A DNA stretch of 64,000 nucleotides. Source: Podarcis gaigeae. Lineage: Eukaryota. The stretch lies in the NCBI GenBank assembly GCA_964106915.2, contig OZ066919.1; one strand, 5' to 3'. The position numbers were made by a program, and so were the translations under genes. Every line of letters begins with the position of its first letter. The first letter of the stretch is position 1. Below are positions 14,985-45,636 of this stretch, piece after piece. The notes below the pieces were generated by a model. That model had not been told where the DNA came from and made no database searches. It saw nothing but the letters and a program-made list of their open reading frames with translations.

Positions 14985-16849
14985 GATAGGCAGATAGATA
15001 CAGATAGGCAGATAGATACAGATGCCTAAAACAGCCATTAAATTAGGCAGGTTCAATGGAGAAAGGGCTACTGTACTTTTAACAGTTGTGCAAAAGCGGA
15101 AATCTCAACAGGTGTGGCTTGTGCTGGGATGGAAAATGCTACACCAGCTGAAATCCCCTTGTTTACACAGGTACACCTGCTGAACTCTTGTTTATGCAAC
15201 TATCCAAGCTGCAGACTCCCTGTCCTCCTGAGCACCTGGCTTCCACATGTGACATGACCTGATTTGCCTTGTTTGTGCCTAATGCTGCCACTGCTGTTTT
15301 TTATGCTTCTGTTTTGGAAGAGGTGTTATATTGTTGAAGAAGGAGTTATCCAACTCACAAAAGGCAGAAGTGGAGATATATATTGGATTATTTTGCATTG
15401 TCAGTAAAAAGAAGATGCTTACACCAAGCTGCTTTCTCATTCTAATGGATGGTAGAGGAGAGAGAGAGATGTTCAGCTTGGCTTTGCAAAAACATAAGAT
15501 TCTAAATTTTTAGTATAAGCTGTCTCACTTAAAAGTGTGATCTGGGCACTCTAGCTGTATATCAAGTTCAGGACCTCTTCCCCTTTTCTTCAGAGGAACC
15601 AATTGTAGCAATTGGGCCTCTGCATGGAGTATTTGTGTTGTTTTTTTTTGGCATTTATTAATTATTTACAGAAATTATACTACACCTTTTAGTCAGAAAG
15701 TGACTTCCAAACTTCTTAGAGTGACTTCCAAACATCAATTCTATGACAGTCCCTGCCCACAGGCTCGCAGTCCAAAATGACATGGCACACAAAGAAAAGG
15801 GAATGGGAAGGAAGAGGAAAAGGCAAGTTCAAGCACAAGTTCTTAAAGTTACAGCTGATGTCAGTGGCAATTCTGGCTGTCCATCCCCAGAAATAGTCTT
15901 CTTCTCAGGCCAGATCCAGGAGCAGAGCTGGTGACAATGTCCAGGCCAGTAGGACAAGGAAGCTCCTGCCACACAGTTCTTTCTTTGTAAAGCTGTTTTC
16001 ATTGTAAAAACAACCCTTGTAGGAGAGGGCTTGATGGAGGTGCCCTCTGCCCTCATCAGTGTAAGCGGCAGTTCTGGATGTCTTGCCACTCCCAGATCAG
16101 ATTGAGGCTGGGAGAACCAGGCAGCTCCTGCCAAACAGTTCTTAAGACTTGATGGCCGAGTAGTTATGTGATAAGAGAGGGGGTGTCCCTTCTTGAACCA
16201 TGTGGACATGATCAAGATGGACTTCCTCTTCAGTTCTTAGTTCTCTAAGTTCAGCCAAAGAAGCTTAAGAAATACTGCTAACATCAGACTGATACTGTAT
16301 ATCACTAATTCAGAAAATGAGATTTCCTGCGCTCTTCAGCCATGCACTGCCCTGTTCCGTGTTCCTTATCTGTTTATTTTTGGCCTTGGCTCCATATTTC
16401 TAACCACACCTTTCTGTTTTATTTTTCCCGTCCTTTTATGAGTGGGTTTATGCACATCCTGGAAGAGAATGTATCACTGCAGTATTGGCCTTGTGCCTGG
16501 ATCATAAGACTTCTTTCCTTCTAGGTTAAAAGCTACCTTGGACAGATTTGGCACATGGATGGCCTTCTCATTTCTGAGCCACTTGGTGCTTTATCTTAAG
16601 GTAGCATCCTCCTTGCGTCACACAAAATTAAGGTAAAGGCCATTTATTCTGCAAGAAGCTAATTCACAGGAAATGCTTTACCTTGAGCTTTGCTATCCAG
16701 ATCTTCAAAGCAGCAAGAACAGAGTTGCAGCAGTCTGCCCTTAAAAAGCCTAATGAAATTGAGGCAGTTTCTTCTGCTTCTTTCAGGCTCCCATTCCTTT
16801 TGTACATTCTCCTTCTGCTTCACCTCAGGTGCTAAAATCAGCAGAGGTC

Positions 16850-18673: not shown

Positions 18674-18785
18674 ATGCCGAACTGGGGTGGAGGAAAAAAG
18701 TGTGGCGTGTGCCAGAAAACGGTGTACTTTGCTGAGGAGGTGCAATGTGAAGGCAACAGCTTCCACAAATCCTGCTTCTTATGCA
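18674..18785 (+). CDS. CSRP1: CSRP1 coding exon (exon 2), LIM1 N-terminal half
   Basis: tttacAG|G ATG; encodes [37 protein letters not shown]; donor A|GTGAGT; 112 coding nt. Confidence 0.97.
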
Positions 18786-21084
18786 GTGAGTATGGCAACC
18801 CCAGGGATGTTTCTGATTTTCTTTTTTCATGCAGACATGTACAATACTCTTGCCAACGTGGTAAATAAAATCTGGGATTTCTTCAGCAGCTAGTAGGGAG
18901 TATGTTGCAATTTGGCTTTGCTGTTTTGCTGCCAATGCAGACTAGCTCTCTGTAAGGAAGTCCTGCAGTCTAACTACTATACAACACTGCCTCTCCTCTT
19001 TGGACAGGAGCACTGTAGAGCTACAGCAGAAGGTTGGCACGTAGTAGGGCCTGGTATTTTGACTGCTGAGCTGCTTAAACACATGTCATGTATCTTGCCA
19101 CATGATCTGGCTCACACTCACAGGGGTGCTGTGAATATAAATTATGTACATGAAACAGAATTGTGTACATGGCCAAGAGCTCCTGGGCAGCAACATTCCA
19201 ATGGAAGGGGGGGGGACTAATAACCCATAGGCTGTATCCAGCCCCAAAAAGATTTTTGTGTCCCCAATTTGTCATTAAAAAATTCATCCACTTCTCTACT
19301 GGCTCTCTTGCTGTGATGCCATAGGGATTTTTGTGTGTGCTTCCCAAGCCCCTCCAAATCTGTTTTTTTGTTTACTGAATTTAATTTAAAAAAATTAAAA
19401 CGTGATTAAAGATTGTCTTAAAATAGTTTAGATAGCTGATGGAAAATTATTTGAAAGTCAATCTTGAAAACTGCCTATGTCTACCACATGGGGTCTGAAG
19501 AGTCAATGTGGCCCTCTGTTCAAAAAGAGGTTAGCAACAGCCCTGTTCTAACCAAACTGCTTTCCACTATGTACACCTGTCCAGTGGTCCCAGCAACCCA
19601 GGAAGTATCTACCTTGTCTAAAGGGATAAGCCTTGCTTGTAGCATTCACTGTGGCTCCCACCAGAACCTCTGCAGTACCCTGATAATTCTTGCCTCAGAT
19701 TTTGAACTGTGCATGCACAACCACGTTTTGGCAGTACAAATCTGCTGCTCAGAATGTCCCCCAAAACAATGAAGGATTGCCTTCTCTAGTAACCCTGAGT
19801 AAAGCATGCCAGTCGTTTCCCCCCAGATTGCAAAGGAACATGTAATATGACTGTTCAAAAATTGGAGGAAAAAAATGTTCTTAAAAGCACTTTTTAAACT
19901 TCCTGCACATTTACCAATCTTTTATTAGATGAGTTTGAAAGCTGGAACATTGTTGATCTCTTCATGTACATTACATATGCCAATGTTCAAATTATTGGCT
20001 CATGTTTCAAGTTATTTTGCAAGTTAAAATAGTGAAAGTTTTTTGAATCCTAAAATCAGACTTGTAAAGTGCTACTGATGGCCAGAAATGTCATGAAATT
20101 TTTCCTGCTCTATTATTTCATACAAAAAGGTTTCTGACGGTCCTTTTTATTGAGTCATCTGTGTTAACAGATATGGGAGCCTGCTTTCAAGTTGCATGGA
20201 ACTCTTAATCAGGCAGCAGTAAGTGTTCCATGTAATTCAAAAGCTTTCTGTCCTACTCTGCCTTACAGTTCCTGTACTCTGCAAGCACAGCCATTAAATT
20301 TCCATGCACTGTAGTGCTAGTCATAGATGGTAAAAAGTTCTATATTAGTTTGTTTCATAACGGCAATGGATCTTGCTCTTTCTGTAACTCCATTCTAATT
20401 GACAGTGAATTCATAGACAGAATTTTAAACCTGATAGGCCCTGCCTATTGAAGCTGAATGTCAAATGTAGAGCCTCTTTAGCCAGCTGGTGTTGACTTGG
20501 TTGTTGTTTTTTAAATAAAATAAAAAGCTTTCTGTTCTTGTGCTCTGCTCTCTACTGCATCCAATGTTAGGCTTATCTTCACACTAATGCTGTGTTTGTC
20601 TTTTCTTATGCGCTGTGTGTCTGATGACCTCCTGTGTTTGTGTGTTCCGCCTCTAAGAATCTTGTATATGCTTCAGCTTGCTGTGGTTGTGAATAAACTA
20701 AACAATAGCTGGTGAAAGGAAATGCGGCTAATCTGCTAATCTCAAAGCACTGAAGGAAATGCCCTCTGTGATGGGACTGTGTTGACCTGGGGCAACAGCT
20801 GTTCTCTAGTTTAGCAGCTGGAAAATGTGATTTTTACTGCAGCTATGAACATCTTAAAACAAAAGTTGTGCTGCTCTCTTACTGCACAATATGTACCAAC
20901 CTCTGGTCCCTGTGACCACATAAACTCACTTTGACCCTAACAAAGGAGACTTAATAGGAGCAGTCTCATCTGTTGTTCAAGTGACTTGCCTGTTCATGTG
21001 GGTGTGGAGATCTATTTTTTACATCAACCTTAAGCAAAGCTACAGGGGGTAAATGTCTGAAGTAGGGGGAAAGCTGCAGCTCCT

Positions 21085-21253
21085 GGGGAAGGGCCATAGC
21101 TCAGTCATAGAGCATCTGCTTTGCATGCAGAAGGTGTCAGGTTCATTCCCCTACATCTCCAGGTAGGGCTGGGGAGAGAACCTTGCCTGGAACCCTGAAG
21201 AGCCATGCCAGACAGTTTACAGATAGTACAAAGCTAGATGGACCAATGGTCTG
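21085..21253 (+). mobile_element. Older tRNA-derived SINE (tRNA-Ala-like head)
   Basis: Head ggccatagctcag..gagcatctgctttgcatgcagaagg..ggttca. Related copies at about 51391-51559 (+), 56652-56840 (+), 36660-36770 (-) and 37770-37885 (-). Confidence 0.65.
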
Positions 21254-22511
21254 TGCAAGTAACTGAACACTTGTGGACCTGCAGATATTATGGCCTCAAA
21301 TAAGAACACTTCCAGGCTTGGGGAACCAGGAGACCCAAAGATCACACCATTTGTTCACCAGAGAGCCAAAGTTTATGTTGGAGGGTTGCCAACCCACAAA
21401 CAATGAACAGCATTACCAGCCATGTTACAAATGTGAAGAGAGATGAGACAGAATAAAATTGCCAAGTCATTTATTTATGAAACTTTTATACCACTTTTCT
21501 GTTAAAAATAAACAGAGCAGTGCATTGTTTGGAACAAACAGTGAAGAATATTGCATGGCAGGAAATCACCATTAACATTCCTCTGAATATAAACTAAGCA
21601 GAGTCTTAATCAGTAAACTGTCAAGAGAACTTGATAAATCAAAACCCTTAAAATAAAAAAGGATGTAGCTCATCAAACCCATTAGCCTTTACCAGTTCCA
21701 AATAAGATCCAAGCTCCATTGTTTGTGGGGGGTGGGAGGAGAAATTCCTAAACATATCGGCTTCCTGGACAGTTACTGAGAAGGGGCCTCATTTGCTCTG
21801 AATGAGAGTAAAAGGAACACACCAGCAGTGAATCAGTTCCTGTTCGACTGATTACAACAGAGAGCAACATAGTTAATCAGTGACGCATTGTAGAGCACGG
21901 AAGTGTAAGTAAGTGGTGGGCTTGGGTTACATCAAAACAAACACCAGATTCTTCTTGAAGTGTGTGGATACGCTAAACAGCTGTCATCTGCAAACAACCC
22001 CAAACCTAGTCCTTTTTAGCTTTTCTGAGCTCATTGGTATGGAATCTCTGCTTCAGAACTACGGCTAATATCCTGATTTCAAATAATTGAGAATGGCATC
22101 TTAGCGAGGCATTTGGCAGTGGCTTCTCAAAGATTTGTATATAGGGCTGAGCAAAAGGGGCCTTTGATATGGAGAGGGCAAAACTCTGAATGGAAAGAAG
22201 ACACACTTCAATCCCCTTCACCAGAAACATAGAACCAAGTATCTTTGATCATAGCTGATTCCCCTTAAGATTACTATAATGACCCAGCAGCCCAATATGT
22301 CACGCTGTTCAAAATAGCTGAGCCTAACTTGTAGTGATTGTACAAGACATCGAGGCCAGGCAAGTATTGGAACTCCACTCCAAGAAATGTAAGCTGTTTT
22401 TGATGGAAGAGAGTTTTGCAGCAATCCTCCTTTGATGGCAGCACATCTTGACACTCCTCCTCCTATTAATTCTCTCTGCTGGAGGGCTAGACCAGTCAGA
22501 GGAAAATAGTA

Positions 22512-22562
22512 CCATATTTGGTAATGAGGATGGGATATTCAGTCTTGGAGACCCATATTTAG
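22512..22562. promoter_or_regulatory. Paired CArG / CArG-like boxes, CSRP1 intron 2
   Basis: Perfect CCATATTTGG (22512-22521) and one-mismatch CCATATTTAG (22553-22562). Confidence 0.5.
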
Positions 22563-23048
22563 TTGCAAGGTATAGGCTGTTGCTACTGTTGCTACTGTGG
22601 CATTCCTAGGGGAGCGCTCTGTTTCGTTTTCGCATTCTTTAAGAGTAAGGCAATTTTATTTTGGGCTAAGAGGCAAACTCCAGCCTCCTGAGGTTTTAAA
22701 ACTTGACTGCTGTTGGCAGACTCAACATCTCTTTCTCTCTCTCTTTAAGGACAATATAGAACTCAAGGCTCTAATTCCTTTGCAGCTGGGAGGAACATAA
22801 CATTAGCTCTTGGACTCAGTTCTGATCCCTCTTATCCTTGCGGCCATCGCTCTTCTCCTCTCCTCACCCTCTGCAGTTCTGACTCTAGAATCAAGGCAAG
22901 GGTTAAGAGAGGACACCAATATGAGTGATGCTGAGGTCTGAATGTACATTTGAGAGAGGGAAATGTGTTTGTGTGCAACTGTGAAGCTGTCAGATACTGG
23001 ATAGCCCAGGCAGAAGCATTTTTGTCTGCAGTTGGAAAGCTCTGTCAA

Positions 23049-24300
23049 TTTTCTTTTCTTTTCTTTTCCAATAATTTTTTATTGATTTTCCATAATATTT
23101 AACAAATTGTCACCAAAATAATAACAATTTCTACAAATTCGATGCAAATTTAAAAGCTGATTTCCCACACACCCCAGATGTTCCCTCTATTTTCCTCCCT
23201 CCTTTCCTGCTCCCAATAAAATAACTTTTCCAACTATCATTTCAAGATACAGTCACCCCTTCTCCCTACACACCACCTGTTCAATTACCAATTTTTGCTT
23301 TGGCTTTTATACATTGTTATAAACTGTCCTCAAAATAGTTGAGTAGAGGAAATCCTCTTTTATCTATCTGTAATAGTCGTTCATCAATTTTGAAACATTT
23401 CCTTCTGATACCTCTTGAGTAACACTTTGTCTGAGAAAGACAGATCTTGCTTCCTCCCAGACAACACACACATGTTCTTCCCTAACATGGCCTTGAGCAT
23501 TGCTGTCTGACATCTCGCCCCAGTAATCAACAACTCAGCCTCACTGGTGCTGCATGCAGAGGGTGAAAATGAAACACCCCCCCTCTCACACTACCAATCT
23601 CCCAGTGTCACCCACCCCTCACATTTTGCCAAAATTTAATCCTGCATTTTACATACAAACAGTTCATTATTGAATCATTAATAAATAAACATAATCCATA
23701 TCTCTTCTTTTCTGTCTAAAAGTCTCAGACACCATCAATATGGTATGCACTGTGGTCCACCCTGTCTCTTTCACTGTTCTTATTTCCAGCTTCAAGAGGG
23801 TGGGGTTGATAAAATCTCAACAAAATCCATATCTTCTCTCCATCCTCCCCCCTAAACTAATAAATCTTCCTGCAGTCCATCCTGCCAATCCTCAGTTCCA
23901 TTACATCCAACCCCACAGTTTGTTCTCTTCCTAGTGCTTAGCAGACAATCAATCCAGTTGTTCCTAAACTTTCCTTCTTCATTATTTTAATTTCACAATA
24001 CGAAGTTCAAAGGAGTGGTCAAAATCCCTCAAGGTTGTTCCTCTCCATCTTCTTTCAGGCAAAGTCCTTAGTTATAGAATAAAGCCATCACAAAGAGGTA
24101 TCTTTAAAGTCACTCTTCCCCAAAAACTTTACATTCCATTGCTTTAGAGGAGAGTAGATAATGCAGACCCTCCCAAAATGACTTAAAATATTTCCTCCCC
24201 TCCTCTCCTTCCACCTGTCAAGCAAAGCAGAAACAAGCATCTTTGATTCTTTCCAAACCTTTCCAAACAGATGGTTTTCTCTTGCAGCATAAATCAGGAC
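23049..24300 (-). mobile_element. Probable L1-related retroelement remnant (boundaries uncertain)
   Basis: Begins with a poly-T/ttttc tract and tttttattg, resembling the other L1-type tails in this window. No TSD found. Confidence 0.4.
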
Positions 24301-24446
24301 ATTTTCAGGAGGGTGCCTCTTCGCTTGCCAGTTATGTCTGAATTAAATGGTATTCCACAGCTCATCACAGTAAATTGCTGGGGCTGTCCTTGATGGAGCC
24401 ATTGAGCCCAGCGCCCTCACCTTTTTGTCTTTGAGATGAGGATTTC

Positions 24447-24454
24447 CACACACA

Positions 24455-24495
<41 letters not shown>
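24447..24495. repeat. (CA)n microsatellite
   Basis: Read directly from the sequence. Confidence 0.95.
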
Positions 24496-24496
<1 letters not shown>

Positions 24497-24691
24497 GCGA
24501 ACACACACAGAGTATCTTGACAGTAGCTCTTCAGTGTCATCTGTTCTTTGACCCTAATTCTCTGTGGCACTGCAGGTATTGAATGGCTACCCACAAATCT
24601 CCTCAGGTAGCTCCTTGGAGAAAGCAGGTCTGATACTTAAAGCTTCTGAAGGCCTTCTGACTTTTGACTCTTCCTTCTCCCTTCCTTGCAG

Positions 24692-24860
24692 TGGTTTGCA
24701 AAAAGAACTTGGACAGCACCACAGTAGCTGTGCATGGAGAAGAAATCTACTGCAAGTCATGCTATGGGAAGAAGTATGGACCAAAAGGCTATGGATTTGG
24801 ACAGGGAGCAGGGACTCTGAGCATGGACAGGGGGGAAGGACTTGGGATCAAACCCGAGCA
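24692..24860 (+). CDS. CSRP1: CSRP1 exon 3, LIM1 C-terminal half, KKYGPK motif and Gly-rich repeat
   Basis: Polypyrimidine tract + ttgcAG; encodes (M)[55 protein letters not shown]; donor CA|GTAAGT; 169 nt, in phase. Confidence 0.97.
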
Positions 24861-24981
24861 GTAAGTTGTAAATCTTTGTGCATCCTGGTAACAAGTGTGA
24901 TCATATTGTCTGTCTTAGGTGAAGATTTTATTTCTTGCTTGTGCAGAAAGGGTGCCAAATACAGTGGTACTATGCCAAATA

Positions 24982-25222
24982 CAGTGGTACCTCGGGTTAA
25001 GTACTTAATTCGTTCCAGAGGTCCGTACTTAACCTGAAACTGTTCTTAACCTGAAGCACCACTTTAGCTAAGGGGCCTCCTGCTGCCGCTGCGCCACCAG
25101 AGCATAATTTCTGTTCTCATCCTGAAGCAAAGTTCTTAACCCGAGGTACTATTTCTGGGTTAGCGGAATCTGTAACCTGAAGCATATGTAACCTGAAGCG
25201 TATGTAACCTAAGGTACCACTG
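24982..25222. mobile_element. Tc1/mariner (Tigger-like) MITE
   Basis: TIRs CAGTGGTACCTCGGGTTA / TAACCTAAGGTACCACTG with TA TSD; same family at 33651 and 57664. Confidence 0.9.
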
Positions 25223-25663
25223 TATGGATATTTTAGAAAGTGAAAAAGCAAACTTGGGCACTCTATCTTTTGGAATGACACAATTTCTGCACCCTCTCCT
25301 AAGCTGTTGTCCTTGACTGCTGCTGTATTGAGTATATGACTCAAATTATCTGGATGAGTACCAGACCAGATTCTCATCCTGCCAGATCTCTGTGATGCAA
25401 ACAAACTATGTGGTCTTGTCCCCAATGCCCCATGGTACGCAGCACACTGACCTGGCATTCACCAGCAAAAATGGAAGTTTGGGAACAACACTATCCTATA
25501 ACTTACCAGTCCCTAGAATACTGATGGCACACTGTTTTTGTTCCCCACTCCTTCCATAGCCACAAACGGAATTGGCTGTCACCAATATCCTCCTTCCCTG
25601 CAGACTCTACAGTGTACAAACCTGCAGACATATAATGATTGTTTCCCTGTCTGGACTCCACAG

Positions 25664-25793
25664 GCCCCAGCCCCACCAGCCTACCAACAATCCCAATGCA
25701 TCCAAGATGGCGCAGAAGGTGGGTGGTGCTGATGGCTGTCCCCGCTGCGGACAGGCTGTGTATGCTGCCGAGAAGGTGGTTGGAGCTGGAAAG
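25664..25793 (+). CDS. CSRP1: CSRP1 exon 4, linker and start of LIM2
   Basis: ccacAG|G; encodes (Q)[43 protein letters not shown]; donor AAG|GTAAGA; 130 nt. Confidence 0.96.
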
Positions 25794-26399
25794 GTAAGAG
25801 CCTCTGTTAAGAGCTGAACCTCAGAGCATAAATCACACACTGGTGTGAGAGTAAATCAAAAACAATGGATGCAATGGGGAAACCGCTTCCAGTTGGGGTT
25901 TCCTGATTTGGGGAATACATAGTGAAACACACGCGTGTGGAATTTCCCCACATTGCAGTTTACACTAAACTTGTTGCATGGGGTGGAATTTAATGTTGCA
26001 GTATTATGAATGTTCCGTTTTCGGAAGCATTTCAGCTTGCCAGACAGAGCAAACTTCCCTCCCCTCTCCTCTCCTCTTGGGTTTCTTCCAGTGCCCCCTG
26101 AGCCAATTGCAGGGGGCATGGGGAAGGGGGGGAGAGAAGGCCCATCACACAAACAGAATCCTTGCACAGGGTTTCCACTCACAGGCTCCTTAGGCAAATC
26201 CTGCCCATGGAAACTATGTCTGTGTAAGAACTTCATGTTATAAGAAGCAGCTCTTGAGTGTTCAACAACTTTTTGTGAAGGTGCTTAAAGCAGCCTTCAA
26301 AACTTATCCTCTGTCAAATTACCATGGATATTTTTGTAATCTATTGCAGAATCAAGACAGAAATGTGGCATCTTTTTGTTGCAGTGTACACTGATCTTT

Positions 26400-26748
26400 A
26401 AGGACACAGGTGGCGCTGTGGGTTAAACCACAGAGCCTAGGACTTGCCGATCAGAAGGTCGGCGGTTCAAATCCCTGCGATGGGGTGAGCTCCTGTTGCT
26501 TGGTCCCTGCTCCTGCCAACCTAGCAGTTTGAAAGCACATCAGAGTGCAAGTAGATAAATAGGTACCACTCTGGCGGGAAGGTAAATGGCGTTTCCGTGT
26601 GCTGCTCTGGTTCGCCAAAAGCGGCTTAGTCATGCTGGCCACATGACCCGGAAGCTGTAGGCCGGCTCCCTCGGCCAATAAAGCAAGATGAGCGCCCCAA
26701 CCCCAGAGTCAGTCACGACTGGACCTAATGGTCAAGGGTCCCTTTACC
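26400..26748 (+). mobile_element. Sauria SINE, subfamily A (CSRP1 intron 4)
   Basis: Full length; TSD TACACT(G/A)ATCTTT. Confidence 0.92.
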
Positions 26749-27114
26749 TACACTAATCTTTGGAACTCCTTGCCCTAAATTATGATTAAGGTTAGCAGCA
26801 TAAATGAGGCTAAGCGATTACATAGGAATATCAGTGAAGATATTTGGGGTGTGTTCATTCTCTTCCTTGGGTTGCATGCAAACCTTAAGTGCTAAAACCT
26901 AGGAGTGATCACTAGGAATTTGGAATATTTCAGTACAAAACAGTATTTGGGATGGGAAGATGGGTGACTGGGCTGCAGGCCTCGTGCATTGCCAGTGAGA
27001 ACTACTGTCTTTAAAAAAATAAGAACCTGACAACACCTAATGTAGGAGTCCAAAAGTGTTGTGGTGAATCCTTTTACTTGCACCCTAACATCTTGTCTTC
27101 TGTGTTGTCCTCAG

Positions 27115-27208
27115 TCATGGCACAAAGCATGTTTCAGATGTGCAAAGTGTGGTAAAAGTTTAGAGTCCACTACTTTGGCTGATAAAGACGGTGAAATCTA
27201 CTGCAAAG
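27115..27208 (+). CDS. CSRP1: CSRP1 exon 5, LIM2
   Basis: cctcAG|TCA; encodes [31 protein letters not shown]; donor G|GTAAGA; 94 nt. Confidence 0.97.
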
Positions 27209-27926
27209 GTAAGAATTTATATTTCAGGATATCTTGCTTGTGTTAGATTTCTAGTGAGATGTGATGGTTAGTCATGGGTCAATGTGTCAAATATGACGCT
27301 AATGCAAAGGGTGTTCTGTCCGCCTCCAGATGGTCTTGGAGGACCAAGATGCAAAATTGCAAAAGGTTGCTATTTAGGGCTTTCATAGAACCATAGGTGG
27401 CAAACCTCTAATATTTATAACTGTTCCTTGACTTGCAGTGTAATAGTGAGACCGATAAATTCCCCCTACCCTTCATCAGTTTGCCCACCTTGATAATATC
27501 TAATGATACCTACAGGTATATACATAAACATGTTTTCCATATCAGCACAGTGTGTCTTAAGGCCTAAACAACTCACAATGCCCTTGTCTTGTGTAACTTA
27601 CCGCTGATGCTCATTGTTGTTGTACAAAATTATTAATCACAGTGGGTGGGAAGAGGCTTCTTATCTCTATGCCTCTAGTGGGTTTTCCACTAAAACTTTT
27701 AAATGCAATGGCTGCAGATTGCAGCCTCTACAGCTGTGTTTTGTAAAAAAATAATAATAATGAAAGTGTTTGAAATGGAGTGGGAGAAGTTACATGTGTG
27801 TAGTTTGCCCCTGAAAAGGGAAGTGTAATTTTCCTGCTTTTGCTCAGTGATTTATGCTGTATGAACTGTTGGTTTGCCGCATAGCCAACACTCTGACTGT
27901 GTCTCTCTTCACCTTTTCTCCTGCAG

Positions 27927-28003
27927 GCTGCTATGCCAAGAACTTCGGACCCAAGGGCTTTGGCTTTGGGCAGGGAGCTGGAGCACTTGTCCACTCCCAG
28001 TGA
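27927..28003 (+). CDS. CSRP1: CSRP1 last coding exon
   Basis: ctgcAG|GC; encodes (G)[24 protein letters not shown] then TGA. Total CDS is 112+169+130+94+77 = 582 nt, or 193 aa. Confidence 0.97.
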
Positions 28004-30152: not shown

Positions 30153-31513
30153 AATAATAATATAATAATAATTTATTATTTATACCCCGCCCATCTGGCT
30201 GGGCCTCCCCAGCCACTCTGGGCGGCTTCCATAAAAACCAAAAATACAGTAAAATCACACGCTAAAAACTTCCTTAAACAGGGCTGCCTTAAGATGGCTT
30301 CTGAATGTCAGGTAGTTGTTTATTGCTTTGACATCTGCTGGAAGGGCGTTCCACAGGATGGGCGCCACTACCGAGAAGGCCCTCTGCCTGGTTCCCTGTA
30401 GCTTTGCTTCTCGCAATGAGGGAACCGCCAGAAGGCCCTTGGCGCTGGACCTCAGCGTCCGGGCAGAATGATGGGGGTGGAGACGCTCCTTCAGGTATAC
30501 TGGACCGAGGCCGTTTAGGGCTTTAAAGCTCAGCACCAACACTTTGAATTGTGCTCGGAAACATACTGGGAGCCAATGTAGGTCTTTCAAGACCGGTGTT
30601 ATATGGTCTCGGCGGCCGCTCCCAGTCACCAGTCTAGCTGCCGCATTCTGGATTAGTTGTAGTTTCCGAGTCACCTTCAAAGGTAGCCCCACGTAGAGTG
30701 CATTGCAGTAGTCCAAGCGGGAGATAACCAGAGCATGCACCACTCTGGCGAGACAGTCCGCAGGCAGATAGGGTCTCAGCCTACGTACCAGATGGAGCTG
30801 GTAAACAGCTGCCCTGGACACAGATTTGACCTGTGCCTCCATGGACAGCTGTGAGTCCAAAATGACTCCCAGGCTGCGCACCTGGTCCTTCAGGGGCACA
30901 GTTACCCCATTCAGGACCAGGGAATCCTCCACACCTGCCCGCCTCCTGTCCCCCAGAAACAGTACTTCTGTCTTGTCAGGATTCAACCTCAATCTGTTAG
31001 CCGCCATCCATCCTCCAACCGCCTCCAGACACTCACACAGGACCTTCACTGCCCTCACTGGTTCTGATTTAAAAGAGAGGTAGAACTGGGTATCATCTGC
31101 ATACTGATGAACACCCAGCCCAAACCTCCTGATGATCTCTCCCAGCGGCTGCATGTAGATGTTGAAAAGCATGGGGGAGAGGACAGAACTCTGAGGCACC
31201 CCACAAGTGAGAGCCCAGGGGTCTGAACACTCATCCCCCCCACCACTTTCTGAACACGGCCCAGGAGGAAGGAGCGGAACCACTGTAGGACAGTGCCCCC
31301 AGCTCCCAGCCCCTCAAGACGGTCCAGAAGGATGTTATGGTCGATGGTATCAAACGCCGCTGAGAGATCCAGCAGAACTAGGAAACAGCTCTCACCTTTG
31401 TCCCTAGCCCGCCGGAGATCATCAACCAGTGCGACCAAGGCAGTTTCAGTCCCATGATGAGGCCTGAATCCCGACTGGAAGGGATTCAAATGGTCCGCTT
31501 CTTCCAGGCGTGC
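30153..31513 (-). mobile_element. L2/CR1-group LINE, 5'-truncated, reverse transcriptase region
   Basis: ORFs 31055-31534 and 30255-31283 give QSGFRPHHGTETAL, LLDLSAAFDTIDH, GVPQSSVLSPMLFNIYM, YADDTQ and SRLDYCN; one frameshift at about 31235-31245; simple-repeat tail. Confidence 0.95.
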
Positions 31514-31842
31514 CACTTTCTGTTTCATACACATAACCCAAAATGTGATGTCAGGAAAGTCAGTAGAGCATGAGATTCTACTGGGTGAAAGATTCTTGCA
31601 TTGCAGGGGGTTGGACTAGAAGATTATCCTCATGGTCCCAACTCTACAATTCATTGATTCTGTGATTCTTTGACAGGACTGTCATACAACCTCATTTACT
31701 TTGGTTCAACAGCTTTATCAATCCTGGCACTTCAAGGTAGATAACTATTTTTTTTTTGTCATGCTTAAGGAGATTCCAGAGTTTCCCTCTTTCCTCCACA
31801 CTGTACTAATATTTGCTTCTCATCCAGTGGAACCCCTTCTCC

Positions 31843-37751: not shown

Positions 37752-38543
37752 GTCTACTGGCCATGGCTTTCCAGGATTTCAGACAAGATTCACTCCCTGC
37801 CCTACCTGGAGATGTTATTGGGGATTGAACCTGAGACCTTCTGCATGCAAAACAGATGCTCTACCGCCAGGCTATGGGTCTTTCCCCATGCAAGAGCCCT
37901 GTGGTGTAGTGGTTAGAGTCAAGACCTGGAAAACTAGGGTTCAAATCCCCACTGGCCTTATTTGTCTAGATGCCCATTTGGCTTTTATTACACTTCTGAT
38001 CAGGGGTGCCAACTTGAATAAAATATTGGGTGCGACCAGGTAAACTCTGCCCCGCAGAATCGATCACAGGACGTGGCACACGCGCACCATTTGAATCCAT
38101 CAATTGGAGGGGCTTGGCTCCTAGGAGATGGTTCCTATGCTTTCTGTCCACAAGAAAACCCGACCGCGCGCGACTGTTAAGCACGACCCCCGCTGTCCAT
38201 GGCAAGCACTTCCGCGTGGGAATTTGGCCGCGTCTGCGATTCCTTGTCCGACGTGGCTCCTCCGAGCCGCAGCCCCATTCTCCATCTACCTGCCAATGCC
38301 CGCCCCTCCAGCAGCATATAGATAGCCATCGCTGCCGCCCACGATGCCGGCGAGCCCCAGCCACCTTCCTTTCCGTGCGCCAGCCGCCCAAGCTGGGCAC
38401 GCCAGCAGCCCCGCGGGCTCTCTCAGCGCAGCCGGCCCCACGCCTGGGCGTGAGCGCTGCCTCTCCCCGGCAGGCAGAGCTGGGGCGAGGCCCTGGCGAA
38501 GCAGGAAAGGAATGCGAGTGGGAAGAGCGAGGCACAAGCGAGC

Positions 38544-38563
38544 GGGCATGTAGCGGCAGATCC
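38544..38563 (+). promoter_or_regulatory. Putative p53 response element
   Basis: GGGCATGTAG CGGCAGATCC: two abutting degenerate RRRCWWGYYY half-sites near the presumed TSS. Mammalian PHLDA3 is an established direct p53 target. Confidence 0.45.
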
Positions 38564-38754
38564 CGGAGCCCAGAGGCCGGGGCAACCTCCGTCGGAGCTC
38601 ACGCGGCAGAGGGCGGGCTCTCTCTGGCTCCCTCGGTCTCTCCCTCGGAAGCCGGACGGCCAGGAGCAGCAGCAGGAGGAGGAAGAGGAAAGCGCTCCTG
38701 GCAGACCACGCGGCGGCGGCGGCGATTCCCAGCATCCTGGGCAGCCCGAGCCCC

Positions 38755-39115
38755 ATGGCGTCGGAGAAGGTGCTTCGCGAAGGGGTGCTGGAGAAGCGCA
38801 GCGGCGGCCTGCTGCAGCTCTGGAAGAGGAAGCGCTGCCTGCTGGGCGAGAAGGGGCTGCGGCTGTTCGAGGCCAGCAGCCGGGGCTCGACGCGCTGCAA
38901 GGAGATCCCCTTCGCGCGCCTCAAAGCTCTCGAGTGCGTGGAGTGGAAGCAGAGGCACATCTACTTCACGTTGGTGACGGACGGCGGCGCCGAGATCGAC
39001 TTCCGCTGCCCCCAGGAGGAGCCCAGCTGGAACGCCGACATCACCATGGCGCTGGTGCGCTTCAAGAACCAGCAGGCGGTGCAGATCGTGCGCGCCAGGC
39101 ACAGCTGCAGAGCCG
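38755..39115 (+). CDS. PHLDA3: PHLDA3 coding exon 1 (PH domain)
   Basis: Encodes [28 protein letters not shown]...[19 protein letters not shown]...[24 protein letters not shown], matching the PHLDA3 signature. Context cccATGG; donor GCCG|GTAAG; adjacent to CSRP1 as in other vertebrates. Confidence 0.95.
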
Positions 39116-40389
39116 GTAAGGCCAGCACGTCGGGGATGGCGCGCGGGGGATGGTGCACGGCATGGGGCAAGAAAATCGTGCCCCTTCTGCCCAGGAAACG
39201 ATGGCCAGAGCCGAAGGGCAGACAGAGCACGTGCTTTGCGCGCACCGGGGCTCCGCGGGCACTTCCAGTTTAAAATATCTCTGGTAGCAGAAGTGGAAGA
39301 AGGCTCCAGCCAGAGACGGTGGCGAGATTCGGCCGCCAGTCAGAGTAGCAGTGATCTGACTCAGCACAAGGTGGCTTCAGGCGTTCATACAAGATGTGTC
39401 ATTATCACGCTGGTTCCATTTATGCCTTAATTCATCCAGAAACCTGCATCAAAAGATTGGCACCTTTCCTTTCCATTTTACAACTCGGGATGTGACCAGG
39501 TAGCCTCTTAGAGAGCACTCTTCCCCACTCTTGTGCTCCCTGGAGGTTCTGGGGGAGCTTAGAGGAAGTTGTGGGCACCAGTGGTGTGCGGTGATTTTTT
39601 TTTTGTAGGGGAAAAGCTAGGGCTAGAGGCGCCAGTTTATGAGAGCGATCCCCCCCCATTGTGTGTGTGACTTTGTGATGTTGTGAGCACCATCCTAAGC
39701 CAGGCAGAAGCTCCCCGAGAGAAGGCACCAGGCATGAATACTTTAATACTCTAATTACTGGGAGCGTTTAGGGGACTTGCCCAGTCCCCCTAGTCCACTG
39801 ACCGCCTGCCACTGGTGGCCACTGGTGGGTTTCTACTACTCATATGTATGGTAGACTATACAGGAAGGCCCAGGATGTTTTGGTGCCTAAGGCAAAACAT
39901 CATTAATAGTCTTTCCATTTATAGACCGTATACTACCTGATGCTCACAGTATGGTTTATAGCAGATAAAAATAGTATATACACAGTAGATATGTACACAA
40001 GCAATATCCATATCCATTATTTTTATTAGGTATATTGTGGCTTTATATCTTGATTTTATTTTGTGAACCGCCCTGAGACCCCCAGGTCTAGGGCGGTATA
40101 TAAAATCAGATACTACTACTACTAATAATAATATCCACAAACAATATTAATATAAGTAAAGTCAGAGAGCATTACAAGGCAGTATAATGTATGTTATGTT
40201 GGCTGAAAATTTGCATTACATTATTATAGAACTACCCCCTGAATTTTACTCGCCAACCATTGCACACAACCACTATGATCATCCACTACCTTAAATATTA
40301 TCTCTATCACCCAGCCACTCATACCTGACAGTATTACAGCCCACATACAAAGCATGCTGTCCCCAGTTCTGAAGCACTAATGGGCTCAT

Positions 40390-40585
40390 GACCACTCCGT
40401 ACATTTAAAGCATATCCAATGCACGTGACCCCCCCTACAAATCCTAGGATTTGCAGTTTGTTATGGGTGCTGGTAACTGTAGCTCTGTTAGAGGGAAACT
40501 ACAGATTCCAGGATTGTTTGAAGCAAGGGGAAGTCATGCGCTTCAAATATGTGTTCATTGTGCTTTAAATGTATCATGTGGATAT
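40390..40585. mobile_element. Old palindromic MITE-like element
   Basis: Terminal inverted repeat tacatttaaagca / tgctttaaatgta. Confidence 0.5.
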
Positions 40586-41057
40586 GCACTGGACCATCTG
40601 ATACTCCTCTCCCATCTGAGAAGGCCCAGTTCTATACCACAGCAGCCTCTCACCCAGGAGGCAGGTTATATAAAACTACTTCTATCCACTCACTTACAAG
40701 CATGCATTGTACTCTACAGCCTGAGCTCCTGACAAATAACTAATAAGCTTGGTAGCAAACGTGAGCATGAAGGTCACAATCAAGGTGGCCCTAAAGCCCA
40801 GCCAGTGGCTACACCCTGCTTTTCCATCAGTGATTTGGCCTGCTCCATCTCATGCTCTATTGACACGTTGTTGGGCAATATCTCATGCTCTGACTGAGAA
40901 CCACAGGACAAAAAACCTTGCCAGGCACAAGGTTTAAGTACAATACATGGAGAGGTGGGAGGGAGAGAGAAAAGCAGTCTCAGTTTAGGAATCCATGTGA
41001 ATCTTCTACTTTTGAACCTCTATCCCCACCCTCCCAAATAGTACCTGCATGGCGATA

Positions 41058-41266
41058 CAGTGTAACCTTGGTTTTCGAATGTCTCCGTTGACGAATGTTT
41101 CGGAACTCGAATGCCATAAACCCAGAAGTAAATGCTTCCATTTTCGAACACACCTCAGAAGTTGAAATTCCGAGGTAACTTCCGTATTGAGTTTTTGGTT
41201 TTCGAACGTTTCAGAACTCAAATGGTCTTCTGGAACAGATTATGTTTGGAAACCAAGGTTCCACTG
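41058..41266. mobile_element. Tc1/mariner (Tigger-like) MITE, second family
   Basis: TIRs CAGTGTAACCTTGGTTT / AAACCAAGGTTCCACTG with TA TSD. Confidence 0.85.
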
Positions 41267-42118
41267 TAAAAATATTTGTTGCCCCCTAATGGTGCCCTGA
41301 AATCTGCCATAATATGGGAAAGGTGCGAGGCAGTCTTGATTTATGCTAAATTTTTGCAGTCCCTGATCCTTTCACTGACACTTGCTAGGTGCTGACCAAA
41401 TAGCCATTGCATATATAGAAGTCCTCTGTCTCTGGTGATCTCCACTCATGAAGAAGCATGTAGGAACAGACTGTGTGCCTAACATGCATGTTGTAGAGAA
41501 AGTGGATAGGGAGAGGCTTTCCACGCCTTCTCTCATAATAGTAGAACTGTGGGGGGTGGGGAATCCAATGAAACTAAAGGTATGATGAAGAGAAAAGAAA
41601 GCACTTCTTCATGCAGTGCTTACTTAATCTGTGGAAGTTGCTCCCAGAAGATGTGATGAAGGCCACCATCTTGGATGGCAGTCAAAGAAGATCTGATTAA
41701 TTCATGGGGGCCAGAGCTATTGATGGCTATGTTCTCCCTTCATTACTGGGAGGCAGTATGCTTACATATGCCAAATACTCGGAATGGCCGGTGGGGAGAG
41801 GTCTGTCGCACTCAGGTCCTGCTTCTGTGCTTCCTGTGAGAACAGGATGCTGGACCAGATGGTTGGATCCAGCAAGAGCTCTTCTTGTGTTCTGTCCATC
41901 AGCAGATTTGTTTTCCTTTACACCTGCTTGCTCTTTTAACTAGTAAGAGGTAGACTGACAAATGCCCTTCACTGTTAGCAGATAGTTGGACCATGCATGT
42001 GATACACCCTGTTCTCATGTTACTAGAGCTGCGCCCAGCCAAAGAAGCCTAAGCAATGGAAGGGAAAACAGTATAATTCTTCATGGTTTCTTCACTCCTG
42101 AGGTATCATGCTTATTTT

Positions 42119-42190
42119 AATAGTATGATATATCAAAGGCTCAGGGTATTTTTAAATAGTATGGTATATCAAAGGCTCAGGGTATTTTTA
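42119..42190. repeat. 36-bp tandem duplication in the predicted PHLDA3 intron
   Basis: aatagtatg(a/g)tatatcaaaggctcagggtattttta occurs twice. Confidence 0.9.
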
Positions 42191-43449
42191 AGGGTGTTTT
42201 AACCCTTCACTCACAGCAACCAAACCCTGATAGCAGAAGTTATCATGACCAGGAGAAAAGCACGTGGACAGAGGGATCGTGGGGAGAAAGTTGCATGAAG
42301 AGGGGTGGAAAGTTTGAGTCTGGATTCGTCACCTGCACACCTACTGCCTTGGAAACCATATTTCTGTGACGTTGGGGCAGGTCCATGTATAAGCACCAGG
42401 ATCTGCTGCCATTGCATCTAGTCTATCCCTGAACATGGCAAGTATGGCTGATCTCCAGTGTTGACTGTATTATGCAGGAAGAAAATGTTACTGGTCTTTT
42501 CAGCCAAGGCTGTGTGATTTCTCCCATACCTTGCATATATTCTTGCCCAGTTTCTGTTTCTCTTGTCCTGCTCTAACTTGTCATACTGCAAATCCCCATC
42601 AGTCAGCAAGTGAACATGAGACTATTGTTCAGTTCCTGCTCAGGCCAGCAAGTTGTGGATAATTTGTTCCATCCAACTAGCCTCTCATATAAGAATGGCT
42701 TTTTGACAGAAAGTTTCTAGGACTCAAGTGGCTCTTTGCAATTTCAGATATAACAGTAGGTGCTCCACAATTTCAGATGTAACAAAATTATTTCAGTCCC
42801 TGTTAAACTTTCACTCTTACTCTAGTGATAGGAATTGTTCAAATGAAGAGCACTATTTTTAGTTTGCAAGCCATGTTTTTGACATTATGGGGTTTTGGAT
42901 TTATTATTACTGTTATATTATAATTAGTAGTAGTAGTAAAGTTTTTTATTATTTCATTTTATAATGCATATAAAACAGAGATAACAATTATAAAAACAGA
43001 CAAAAATTAAAAGATGAAAAACAAAACTATAAAATAGGCTCATGAGTAGTTGCTCATGAGTTAAAATAACAAAGTCCAAGGAAATACTATCAACTTTATT
43101 GTTATATTATTAATATTGTTTCAGTAACACCTTTTAGTATACAAAGTTCTTTACAATATATTGTAACAGCCCTGTAACAAAAGCTGTTGAAACAACTTGC
43201 AATCAAAAGAATAGGATAGGTGTCAAAAGCCAGGGTAAAGCCATATAACAAGAGCTGTATAATGAATGTGCCAAATGCATCTCTGTAGGGAGGAAACTCC
43301 AAAGCTTAGGAGCTGCCACAGGAAATGCCTGCTCCCAGGTCTTCCAAGTTTGAATATTCTCACACATCAGCACCTGCACTAGTCTGGCCCTTTGTCCAAC
43401 TTGTCTCCAGTCTAACCAAAGATCCACCTCCTTTCCTTTTCTGTTGCAG

Positions 43450-43598
43450 CATTTCAACATGAGGCAGCCCCAGCTGGCCAGATTCTGGTGAATGGGTCCA
43501 AGGAGCCAGACCCTAAGCTGAACATGGAGAACACAGAGGAACTGATGGCTGTGAATTCACCTGCCAATGGACAGAAGGCAATCTCCAGCTGCAACTGA
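43450..43598 (+). CDS. PHLDA3: Predicted PHLDA3 coding exon 2 (C-terminal extension)
   Basis: Branch-like CTAAC at 43412, polypyrimidine tract ctcctttccttttctgttgcAG. The phase-1 join reads (A)FQHEAAPAGQILVNGSKEPDPKLNMENTEELMAVNSPANGQKAISSCN then TGA; 169 aa total. Confidence 0.6.
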
Positions 43599-45022
43599 AC
43601 TTAGATCCATTTTTTCTCTTCCATGGTATTACTACTGAAAAACGAAGTGATGCCCAAAGCGTACAGCAAGACCTGGGTCACAAATATAGCTAGAATGGGC
43701 ATTGGTTTTCTGGCTGCGTCTTTGCTATGATACTTAAGTCACAGACAAAGCCCCCTCCAAACTGCTGTGGACTGAAAGGTTGCTTCTCTACTCTCATACC
43801 TATGGTGGTCCACACCATAGGACTTTGTAGGTTAGGCTGAAGAGACAGACACAGCAAGAGTGACAAAAGAGAATCATTCCATTCCATTGTCTGCCACCAG
43901 CCTAGTGCTGGATGGGCGATGCAGGAATTCACTGGATCATGAGGAGCGTTGGGAAGGAATTCCTGAGCATGCGAGGAGCCATCTGATGACTTCATGATTG
44001 AAAGGGAGCATCCCTCCTCGGAGAACTGAGTGACTGACCTGGAAGGAGCAATGGTGAACCGGCTATTCTGATCTGAGAAGTCACATGTTGCCAGGAAGAT
44101 GCCTGCAGGACTTAACAGACAGACCGGATATAAATTTAAGCACCTTAAGGAGGAGCCTGTGTGGACTTCTGAGACTCTCTTAAATGAGTTTTCTCTGTAG
44201 TATTGCTCACTTGAGGCCTTCTGCTCAGAACTAAAGGACAGGAAGAACACTGACTGGGCCAGTGTCCCATCCTTACGACCAATAGCTCCAGCTCAGTGAA
44301 TCACTCTGGTGTCCCACTGTACATCCATTTCATTAGGTCCCTTACATACTGTTGGCCATTACATGTGTGAAGGGGCAATCCACCTTTAACCAAACCGTCA
44401 TGCTTTCCATATGTTCAGGGCATGTGTCTGCAGTGGGGAGCTTGTTGCACTCATGTAGGCTCCCCATGTGACTGAGAGGCCTAATGGCACCAGGTTCTAG
44501 ATTGCTTGAGATGTTTACATGAGAGTAGCAGTCTTCCCACTGCAGAGGGTTGCCCTGAAAGAGTGGGAAACTGGTTGGAGCAGCACAAGTGGGATAAAGC
44601 TGAAGGCCACCTCTTTAGTCACATTCCCCCTTCATGTGGGTAACAACTAAACAGGGCCTATTACAGGGAGGAACATCATGAACTTTTGAAGAGGACTACT
44701 CACAAAAATGAGCATCCTATTTGACCGTGCACAAGGAAGATTGTCCTGCTCACCTTGAGGCTGTGAATGCCATTGTCACCTTCTCTTTCTCCTGATTCAA
44801 GGCCCATTTACTTACTATGGGCCATGGCAAGGAGGCAAGCGCAGGAAGGCCTTAGGGCCCTGGCAGAGCATCTTTATCCATTGGGAATGGAACTGCCAGT
44901 CTGAGAATCCCTAGCTGGGAAAAGGATGCTATTCATTTTTACCAGGGTGATGGCTGTCTGAGGGCCAAACAATGGGTACTCATTTACTCCTAACTACTGG
45001 TCATTATGTATAACCTTTTATT

Positions 45023-45028
45023 AATAAA
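45023..45028 (+). terminator. PHLDA3: Probable PHLDA3 polyadenylation signal
   Basis: AATAAA ending about 1.4 kb of sequence with no repeats I recognise after the predicted stop; GT/T-rich tract at about 45070-45092. Confidence 0.5.
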
Positions 45029-45636
45029 ATTTCAAGAAAATCAACAATGCACATATGTCATTCTTTAGAAGTGTGCCTTTATGGTTCTTTTTAAAAAGTT
45101 GGGCTCATCACGCCATTGCTTAAAGGATTGTGCCTGATGTATGTATGGGCAATGCTCAGGGATGATGGGAGTTGTGGTTCAGTAACATCTGGAGGTCCAC
45201 AAGTTCCCGCCTGCTGCCTTAGACCATGGGCCTTTAACTGGACCATTGAGATCCTCAAGTAGGAATGAAGCAAAGTAGGTTGTGGTGCCACCTGCTTTCT
45301 AATTTTTGTTGAGAGAGAGAGAAACTGAACGCATAGAGGACAGGCCTCCTTTGGTATTTGATGGTGTGAACTCCTGCCTGACAAGCTAAAGCTGACCATT
45401 CTCCCTGGTCATCCTGGCTCATAAAATCAAGAAGAAAGATGGGAATATACCACAATTTTTTTTTAAACACTGCTCCTGTGGTAACCCCATGTTGGGGTTG
45501 CTGAATTGGAAAAGGTTGACTGCTGCAATAGATAATTTGGGCTCTGTTTCCCAATCACTGTGTAAAACTGAATATGTTAAAGAAGGGACTACAGTGGAAA
45601 ATGCAATGGATTGTTGAAATAACAAGGCCACTTTTG

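Follow-up and report, generated by a model that had tools for sequence, protein, structure and literature searches.

The window considered here, a stretch of 64,000 nucleotides (nt) from the lizard Podarcis gaigeae (GenBank assembly GCA_964106915.2, contig OZ066919.1), contains a two-exon gene that is, judging by its sequence, the ordinary orthologue of PHLDA3 in a lacertid lizard, and in which the second exon is coding and supplies a C-terminal tail of 49 residues. This tail probably arose once, in an ancestor of the sauropsids, through a shift of the splice donor to a position before the former stop codon. The first-pass annotation of the DNA had presented the tail as a gain of this lineage. 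This part of its proposal fell, as RefSeq annotations of squamates, turtles, and birds already include the tail, and the outcome that it had itself allowed for, namely a tail that is real but not new if annotated across sauropsids, is the one found. The 169-residue product is already known as a RefSeq annotation, and the feature is neither new nor special to Podarcis gaigeae. Open-access searches, with most subscription journals outside their scope, returned no literature on the sauropsid PHLDA3 tail or its origin.

A sequence scan identified a stop-free open frame of 361 nt from 38755 to 39115, which ends in phase 1 and is directly followed by the donor GCCG/GTAAGG, the GT of which takes up positions 2–3 of a would-be Gly codon in the sequence R-A-G. 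Joining 39115 to 43450 yields a protein of 169 residues, the last 49 of which are encoded by exon 2 up to a TGA at 43596-43598. The acceptor is preceded by CTAAC at 43412-43416 and by a tract with pyrimidines at 18 of 20 positions, the top value among the 215 YAG sites scanned in 39131-45100, and a phase-1 frame of at least 49 codons is offered by 4.7% of these sites. The elements of the gene are as follows.

38001..39500, no strand: CpG island spanning the promoter and exon 1 (CpG observed/expected 0.76-0.89, flanks 0.11-0.33).
38527..38754, + strand: 5′ untranslated region (UTR), its extent as reached by the contig of run X1, which runs on into exon 2.
38755..39115, + strand: coding part of PHLDA3 exon 1, PH domain, 120 codons plus 1 nt (Pfam PF00169; database similarity).
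39116..43449, + strand: intron of 4334 nt, GT-AG, phase 1 (sequence; skipped in the contigs of three of four runs).
43412..43449, + strand: acceptor with its pyrimidine tract (ranked first among 215 YAG sites) and likely branch point CTAAC (branch use from consensus).
43450..43598, + strand: coding part of exon 2, 49-residue tail plus TGA (frame, contigs, database tails).
43599..45028, + strand: 3′ UTR to the likely poly(A) signal AATAAA at 45023-45028 (contig cover to about 44990).

The product of exon 1 matches the Pfam PH domain PF00169 above the cut-off (E 1.8e-05), the coding part of exon 1 shows 99% identity with Zootoca PHLDA3 in a database protein comparison, and the top database matches of the window protein are all PHLDA3, which bears out the gene assignment of the first-pass annotation.

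The splice junction proposed in that annotation was recovered in contigs of presumed RNA runs. Four runs (X1, X5, X9, and X14) were aligned to 38200-45300; their RNA status was guessed, none being on record as RNA, and the evidence consists of contigs, not reads, from three organisms related to this species. The X5 and X9 contigs omit exactly 4334 nt with GT..AG ends, and the X1 contig shows the same 39115^43450 junction, accompanied at 43451 by a synonymous change. Exon 1 is not represented among the X14 contigs; the junction is thus present in three of four runs and two of three organisms, at the exact coordinates and in the frame that had been predicted. The coding tail is free of the 12 contig indels listed, and several indels among relatives are found in the 3′ UTR (43599..45028). 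Contig cover of exon 2 stops at about 44950-44990, near the AATAAA at 45023, and none of the exon joints listed from the contigs falls within 43599-45000, which agrees with the prediction that the stop codon lies in the last exon. The start of the X1 contig at 38527 is not a determination of the transcript start. As a side observation, short repeats that are deeply covered by contigs of each of the four runs are located in the intron (39860-40140, 41050-41270, and 41755-41990) and past the poly(A) signal (45150-45300).

The contigs also bear on the proposal that the true product arises by read-through of the donor into the intron, which would give 173 residues here, the spliced tail being then artefactual or limited to a minor form. 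A UniRef model of Podarcis muralis (P0003) is precisely such a 173-residue read-through, and many bird models likewise continue into the intron. However, spliced contigs are present in three of the four runs, and the first 236-nt bin of the intron (39148-39384) has a depth of 0 in all four, so that no read-through form was seen there, although a rare one may have been missed; furthermore, the read-through tails vary between species in length and sequence, and the RefSeq model of the same Podarcis muralis (XP_028590462.1) is the spliced form of 169 residues. Read-through as a real product was therefore rejected, being largely refuted by the spliced contigs together with the RefSeq models, and we regard it as highly improbable. 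The window product is 1-3 residues away from annotated 169-residue PHLDA3 proteins of Lacerta, Podarcis, and Zootoca; in the case of Lacerta agilis (XP_033008962.1), a single residue of the 169 is different. A protein search found 130 entries, 120 of which were listed and 68 of these counted as sauropsid; the spliced tail is present in 33 of the 68 (32 recognized by script and P0086 by eye).

Two kinds of divergent models were observed among the database entries. PHLDA3-troponin fusion models in GenBank (P0173, P0176, P0178, P0179, and P0190) were rejected, as the joint differs in most of them, and the PHLDA3-troponin I fusions are probably gene-prediction chimeras. Songbird models labelled isoform X1 (P0071 and P0183-P0188) leave exon 1 approximately nine codons earlier, at a second donor within the coding region, and enter exon 2 in another frame, and their tails are long and variable in length.

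The distribution of the spliced tail was assessed from tail lengths pooled from several protein searches, in which three tails truncated too early by a script were put right on inspection and were left in the profiles. The tail comprises 49 residues in 29 of 33 squamate entries (the remaining four have 31, 48, 50, and 51), 41 residues in 11 of 13 turtle entries, and 40 residues in 26 of 28 bird entries, and the tails of the three groups align at the start and at the stop. With a profile built from turtle tails, scores beyond the 99th percentile of shuffles were obtained for 26 of 33 squamate tails, for 28 of 28 bird tails, and for none of the 21 intron read-through tails used as controls. Given a single origin in the reptile–bird ancestor, the tail would have been retained over approximately 280 million years.

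Several observations weigh against a single origin in the sauropsid ancestor. Compared directly, squamate and bird tails show only weak similarity (8 of 28 and 13 of 33 score above shuffles), and the turtles provide the bridge. No crocodilian entry was found, the search with the turtle tail having returned five turtle proteins and no crocodilian, and that for longer proteins likewise no crocodilian, and the single tuatara model (P0016) stops three codons past the donor site without a tail; the placement of the event in the ancestor thus rests on squamates, turtles, and birds. Moreover, an agamid entry (P0167) has a tail of 31 residues and a side-necked turtle entry (P0028) has a different end; these two and the tuatara model could be real exceptions or errors of assembly or annotation. 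Lastly, 35 of the 68 listed sauropsid entries lack the spliced tail and show intron read-through, a partial sequence, or another frame. We read these 35 as annotation artefacts because they are dissimilar to one another; as they stand, they would mislead comparative work.

Regarding the ancestral layout, the PHLDA family is described in the available portions of two reports as having one coding and one non-coding exon (PMC6215895, PMC11201736). The window gene departs from this layout, and the first-pass contrast between a coding exon 2 here and a non-coding one in the mammalian family is upheld, to the extent that the former of these sources covers it. The distance from the PHLDA3 stop to the intron is 62 nt in human, 68 nt in mouse, and 2 nt in zebrafish, according to the accessible supplement of PMC7310861, and the value of 62 nt was also obtained from a frameshifted open reading frame (ORF) of mammalian type in the protein search. 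In the genome of P. gaigeae itself, PHLDA1 and PHLDA2 appear, from their sequence, to end their reading frames in exon 1, and donor-like sites follow the respective stops at 19 and 41 nt. On the basis of the family layout, the human, mouse, and zebrafish distances, and the PHLDA1 and PHLDA2 arrangement, a stop in exon 1 is very likely ancestral and a coding exon 2 derived. The correspondence of the sauropsid and mammalian second exons is one of position.

Two routes from the ancestral to the derived layout were weighed. In the preferred route, the ancestral gene would have had its stop in exon 1 and its intron in the 3′ UTR, as in zebrafish, mouse, and human PHLDA3; a GT donor within the Gly codon of R-A-G would then have taken over, so that the last four codons and the stop became intronic and translation continued into exon 2. 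Mammalian, caecilian, and salamander proteins end a few residues past the PH helix with a shared G-[TA]-L-V-[ST]-like end, which reads R-A-G-A-L-V-T-stop in caecilians and, in the aligned mammalian end, G-T-L-V-S-stop. The lizard R-A-G matches that of the caecilian, the donor GT lies 14 nt ahead of the would-be old stop, and the reptile donor is located in the Gly codon four codons before the mammalian and amphibian stop. Alternatively, a short deletion or substitution may have removed the last codons together with the stop, such that the frame reached the old UTR donor. With the zebrafish donor a mere 2 nt behind the stop, a small deletion would suffice, and translations of the intron read-through retain no trace of the old L-V-S/T-stop end; furthermore, it counts against a confident choice of the donor shift that protein data cannot tell a new donor from a stop deletion. 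However, R-A-G aligns without a gap to the caecilian end with the donor GT inside that very Gly codon, and the second upstream donor in the same coding stretch of songbird models indicates that donors do arise there. Stop loss is accordingly considered an unlikely, though not a negligible, route, and the donor shift is retained as the more likely origin of the tail.

The tail is predicted to be disordered, as the first-pass annotation had supposed: in the AlphaFold model of the Zootoca orthologue, which is two residues from the window product, the PH helix extends to residue 125, and the predicted local distance difference test (pLDDT) score is below 50 at 127-162. Across 13 squamate lineages (78 pairs), the identity of the tail is 69% as compared with 90% for exon 1, an approximately 3.7-fold greater distance, and 15 of the 49 tail columns are invariant. 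A snake-like ORF read through its TGA provided a neutral yardstick for constraint; between it and the lizard sequence, 30 of 48 tail codons are identical versus 14 of the next 45 UTR codons (p = 0.0035), and the intron in the same register yields 4 of 51. By these comparisons of sequence, the tail is constrained and more conserved than the adjacent UTR, be it at the level of protein or of RNA. The proposal that the tail is acidic holds for this species (net charge -3) but not elsewhere, since the net charge is 0 in 9 of 13 snake entries and approximately -1 to +2 in birds.

It is conceivable, albeit doubtful, that selection has kept the tail as a functional module, for instance a regulatory or lipid-anchoring end that alters the membrane binding or lifetime of PHLDA3. 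The invariant columns and the mean identity given above speak for such a role, as do the stop register kept in squamates, turtles, and birds and a penultimate Cys, common in squamates and some turtles, with an S-P site ahead of it. By contrast, the tail diverges about 3.7 times faster than exon 1, its charge is not conserved, and the Cys is absent in 28 of 28 bird tails and replaced in a viper and several turtles. The CaaX box of prenylated proteins places its Cys four residues from the C-terminus; the Cys of the tail stands at position -2, not -4, and CaaX prenylation was rejected on this ground and on its absence in birds. Furthermore, the tail has no Pfam match, and no convincing relative outside PHLDA3 was found among 1.84 billion representatives. 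That search returned eight matches at E up to 0.001, four of which are squamate PHLDA3 tails; the other four, weak or multi-stretch matches to proteins in the range of 661-1688 residues, were taken as matches of composition. The tail is most likely a flexible, tolerated appendage under moderate constraint, with a modest tuning role at most.

Human PHLDA3 (TIH1) is described, in the available text of PMC5480075, as a 127-residue PH-only protein, a p53-induced repressor of AKT that competes for phosphoinositides. A sequence-based comparison with solved structures gave no match. The Zootoca orthologue model matches the PH folds of DAPP1, GRK2, and AKT in Foldseek, and the basic β1–β2 loop is identical to that of the mammalian PHLDA3 rows in a sequence alignment. 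Since this loop is the same as in mammals, the lizard PH domain has likely retained the competition with AKT for phosphoinositides.

A coding exon 2 would also affect mRNA decay. The sauropsid-type PHLDA3 of the window has no exon junction behind its stop and thus falls outside the class of 3′ UTR-intron targets of nonsense-mediated decay (NMD). Because no such junction is present, the mRNA would escape decay dependent on the exon junction complex (EJC), and sauropsid PHLDA3 may plausibly have been freed from NMD control. In zebrafish, phlda3 belongs to a set of 14 transcripts with higher levels in mutants of rbm8a and magoh and in upf1 morphants; the response to an NMD inhibitor was validated for phlda2, not for phlda3, as given in the accessible part of PMC7310861. 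It tells against the decay account that the rise of zebrafish phlda3 in EJC mutants may be indirect, as PHLDA3 is a p53 target. Mouse Phlda3 is also controlled via its 3′ UTR by PTBP1, according to the excerpt available of PMC10018364. The effect on the mRNA is the clearest likely consequence of a coding exon 2 and is firmer than any role of the tail. In a wider account, put forward tentatively, one donor shift in the ancestor shared by reptiles and birds would have made about 40-49 codons out of a 3′ UTR exon and removed the NMD intron, leaving an NMD-immune brake on AKT with a de novo tail under selection.

If true, this account would amount to a natural experiment on whether NMD is the reason for the retention of 3′ UTR introns. 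PHLDA3 without the feature, set against PHLDA1 and PHLDA2 of the same genome, which apparently have it, forms a clean test pair. The gene model itself is routine, and its value lies in the comparison across lineages: PHLDA3, a p53 target and tumour suppressor, is called PH-only, which does not hold in sauropsids.

Upstream of PHLDA3, the window contains exons with LIM/CRP motifs from a gene that we take to be CSRP1.

18686..27990, + strand: CSRP1-like exons of the upstream neighbour, end approximate (five LIM/CRP motif matches at 18686, 24763, 25737, 27118, and 27947).

A troponin I gene is located 15-21 kb beyond the window end on the same strand as PHLDA3. PHLDA3 thus lies between CSRP-type exons and troponin I, as expected from synteny, and the order CSRP1 - PHLDA3 - troponin I is presumably that of mammals. 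A consensus scan for two p53 half-sites with at most three mismatches found none in the PHLDA3 promoter. Degenerate p53-like half-sites, outside the three-mismatch consensus, are present at 38532-38563, just where the longest contig begins (38527), and this stretch is also recognizable in translated snake 5′ regions. A p53 consensus pair with one mismatch and a 2-nt spacer occurs at 15821-15842, approximately 2.9 kb before the first CSRP-type motif, as one of six matches in the window. An antisense ORF of 200 codons at 43690-44292 was rejected, having no Pfam match, and a reverse-transcriptase remnant in two frames on the minus strand at 30255-31615 (Pfam RVT_1) is probably a decayed long interspersed nuclear element (LINE). 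Elsewhere in the genome, two inverted PHLDA2 copies are found 32 kb apart (C1:73738094, +; C1:73705586, -). Their similarity (97%) is confined to approximately 600 nt around exon 1, and from the Met that they have in common both code for an identical protein. A separate CpG island accompanies each copy, a donor-like GT follows each stop at a distance of about 38-41 nt, and the two introns do not resemble each other. The pair looks like an old duplicate held alike by gene conversion.

In comparison with known systems, the same junction and tail are found in the RefSeq proteins of Lacerta agilis (XP_033008962.1), Podarcis muralis (XP_028590462.1), Python (XP_007421225.1), Chrysemys (XP_005310688.2), and chicken (XP_003642782.1). 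The squamate RefSeq PHLDA3 proteins show no substantive difference from the window product, whereas the tails of turtles and birds fall short of it by 8-9 residues and have diverged in the middle. Zebrafish 3′ UTR-intron NMD targets, i.e., phlda2, foxo3b, and cdkn1ba, have a stop followed by an intron, as reported in the portion available of Gangras et al. (2020, PMC7310861); this stop-then-intron layout is apparently kept by PHLDA1 and PHLDA2 of the lizard genome and is lost in sauropsid PHLDA3. Human and mouse PHLDA3 and the window gene all comprise two exons and share the same basic loop in PH domains that are 71-72% identical; however, translation of the mammalian genes terminates in exon 1, 62-68 nt ahead of the intron, whereas in the window gene the intron interrupts the reading frame and exon 2 contributes 49 residues.

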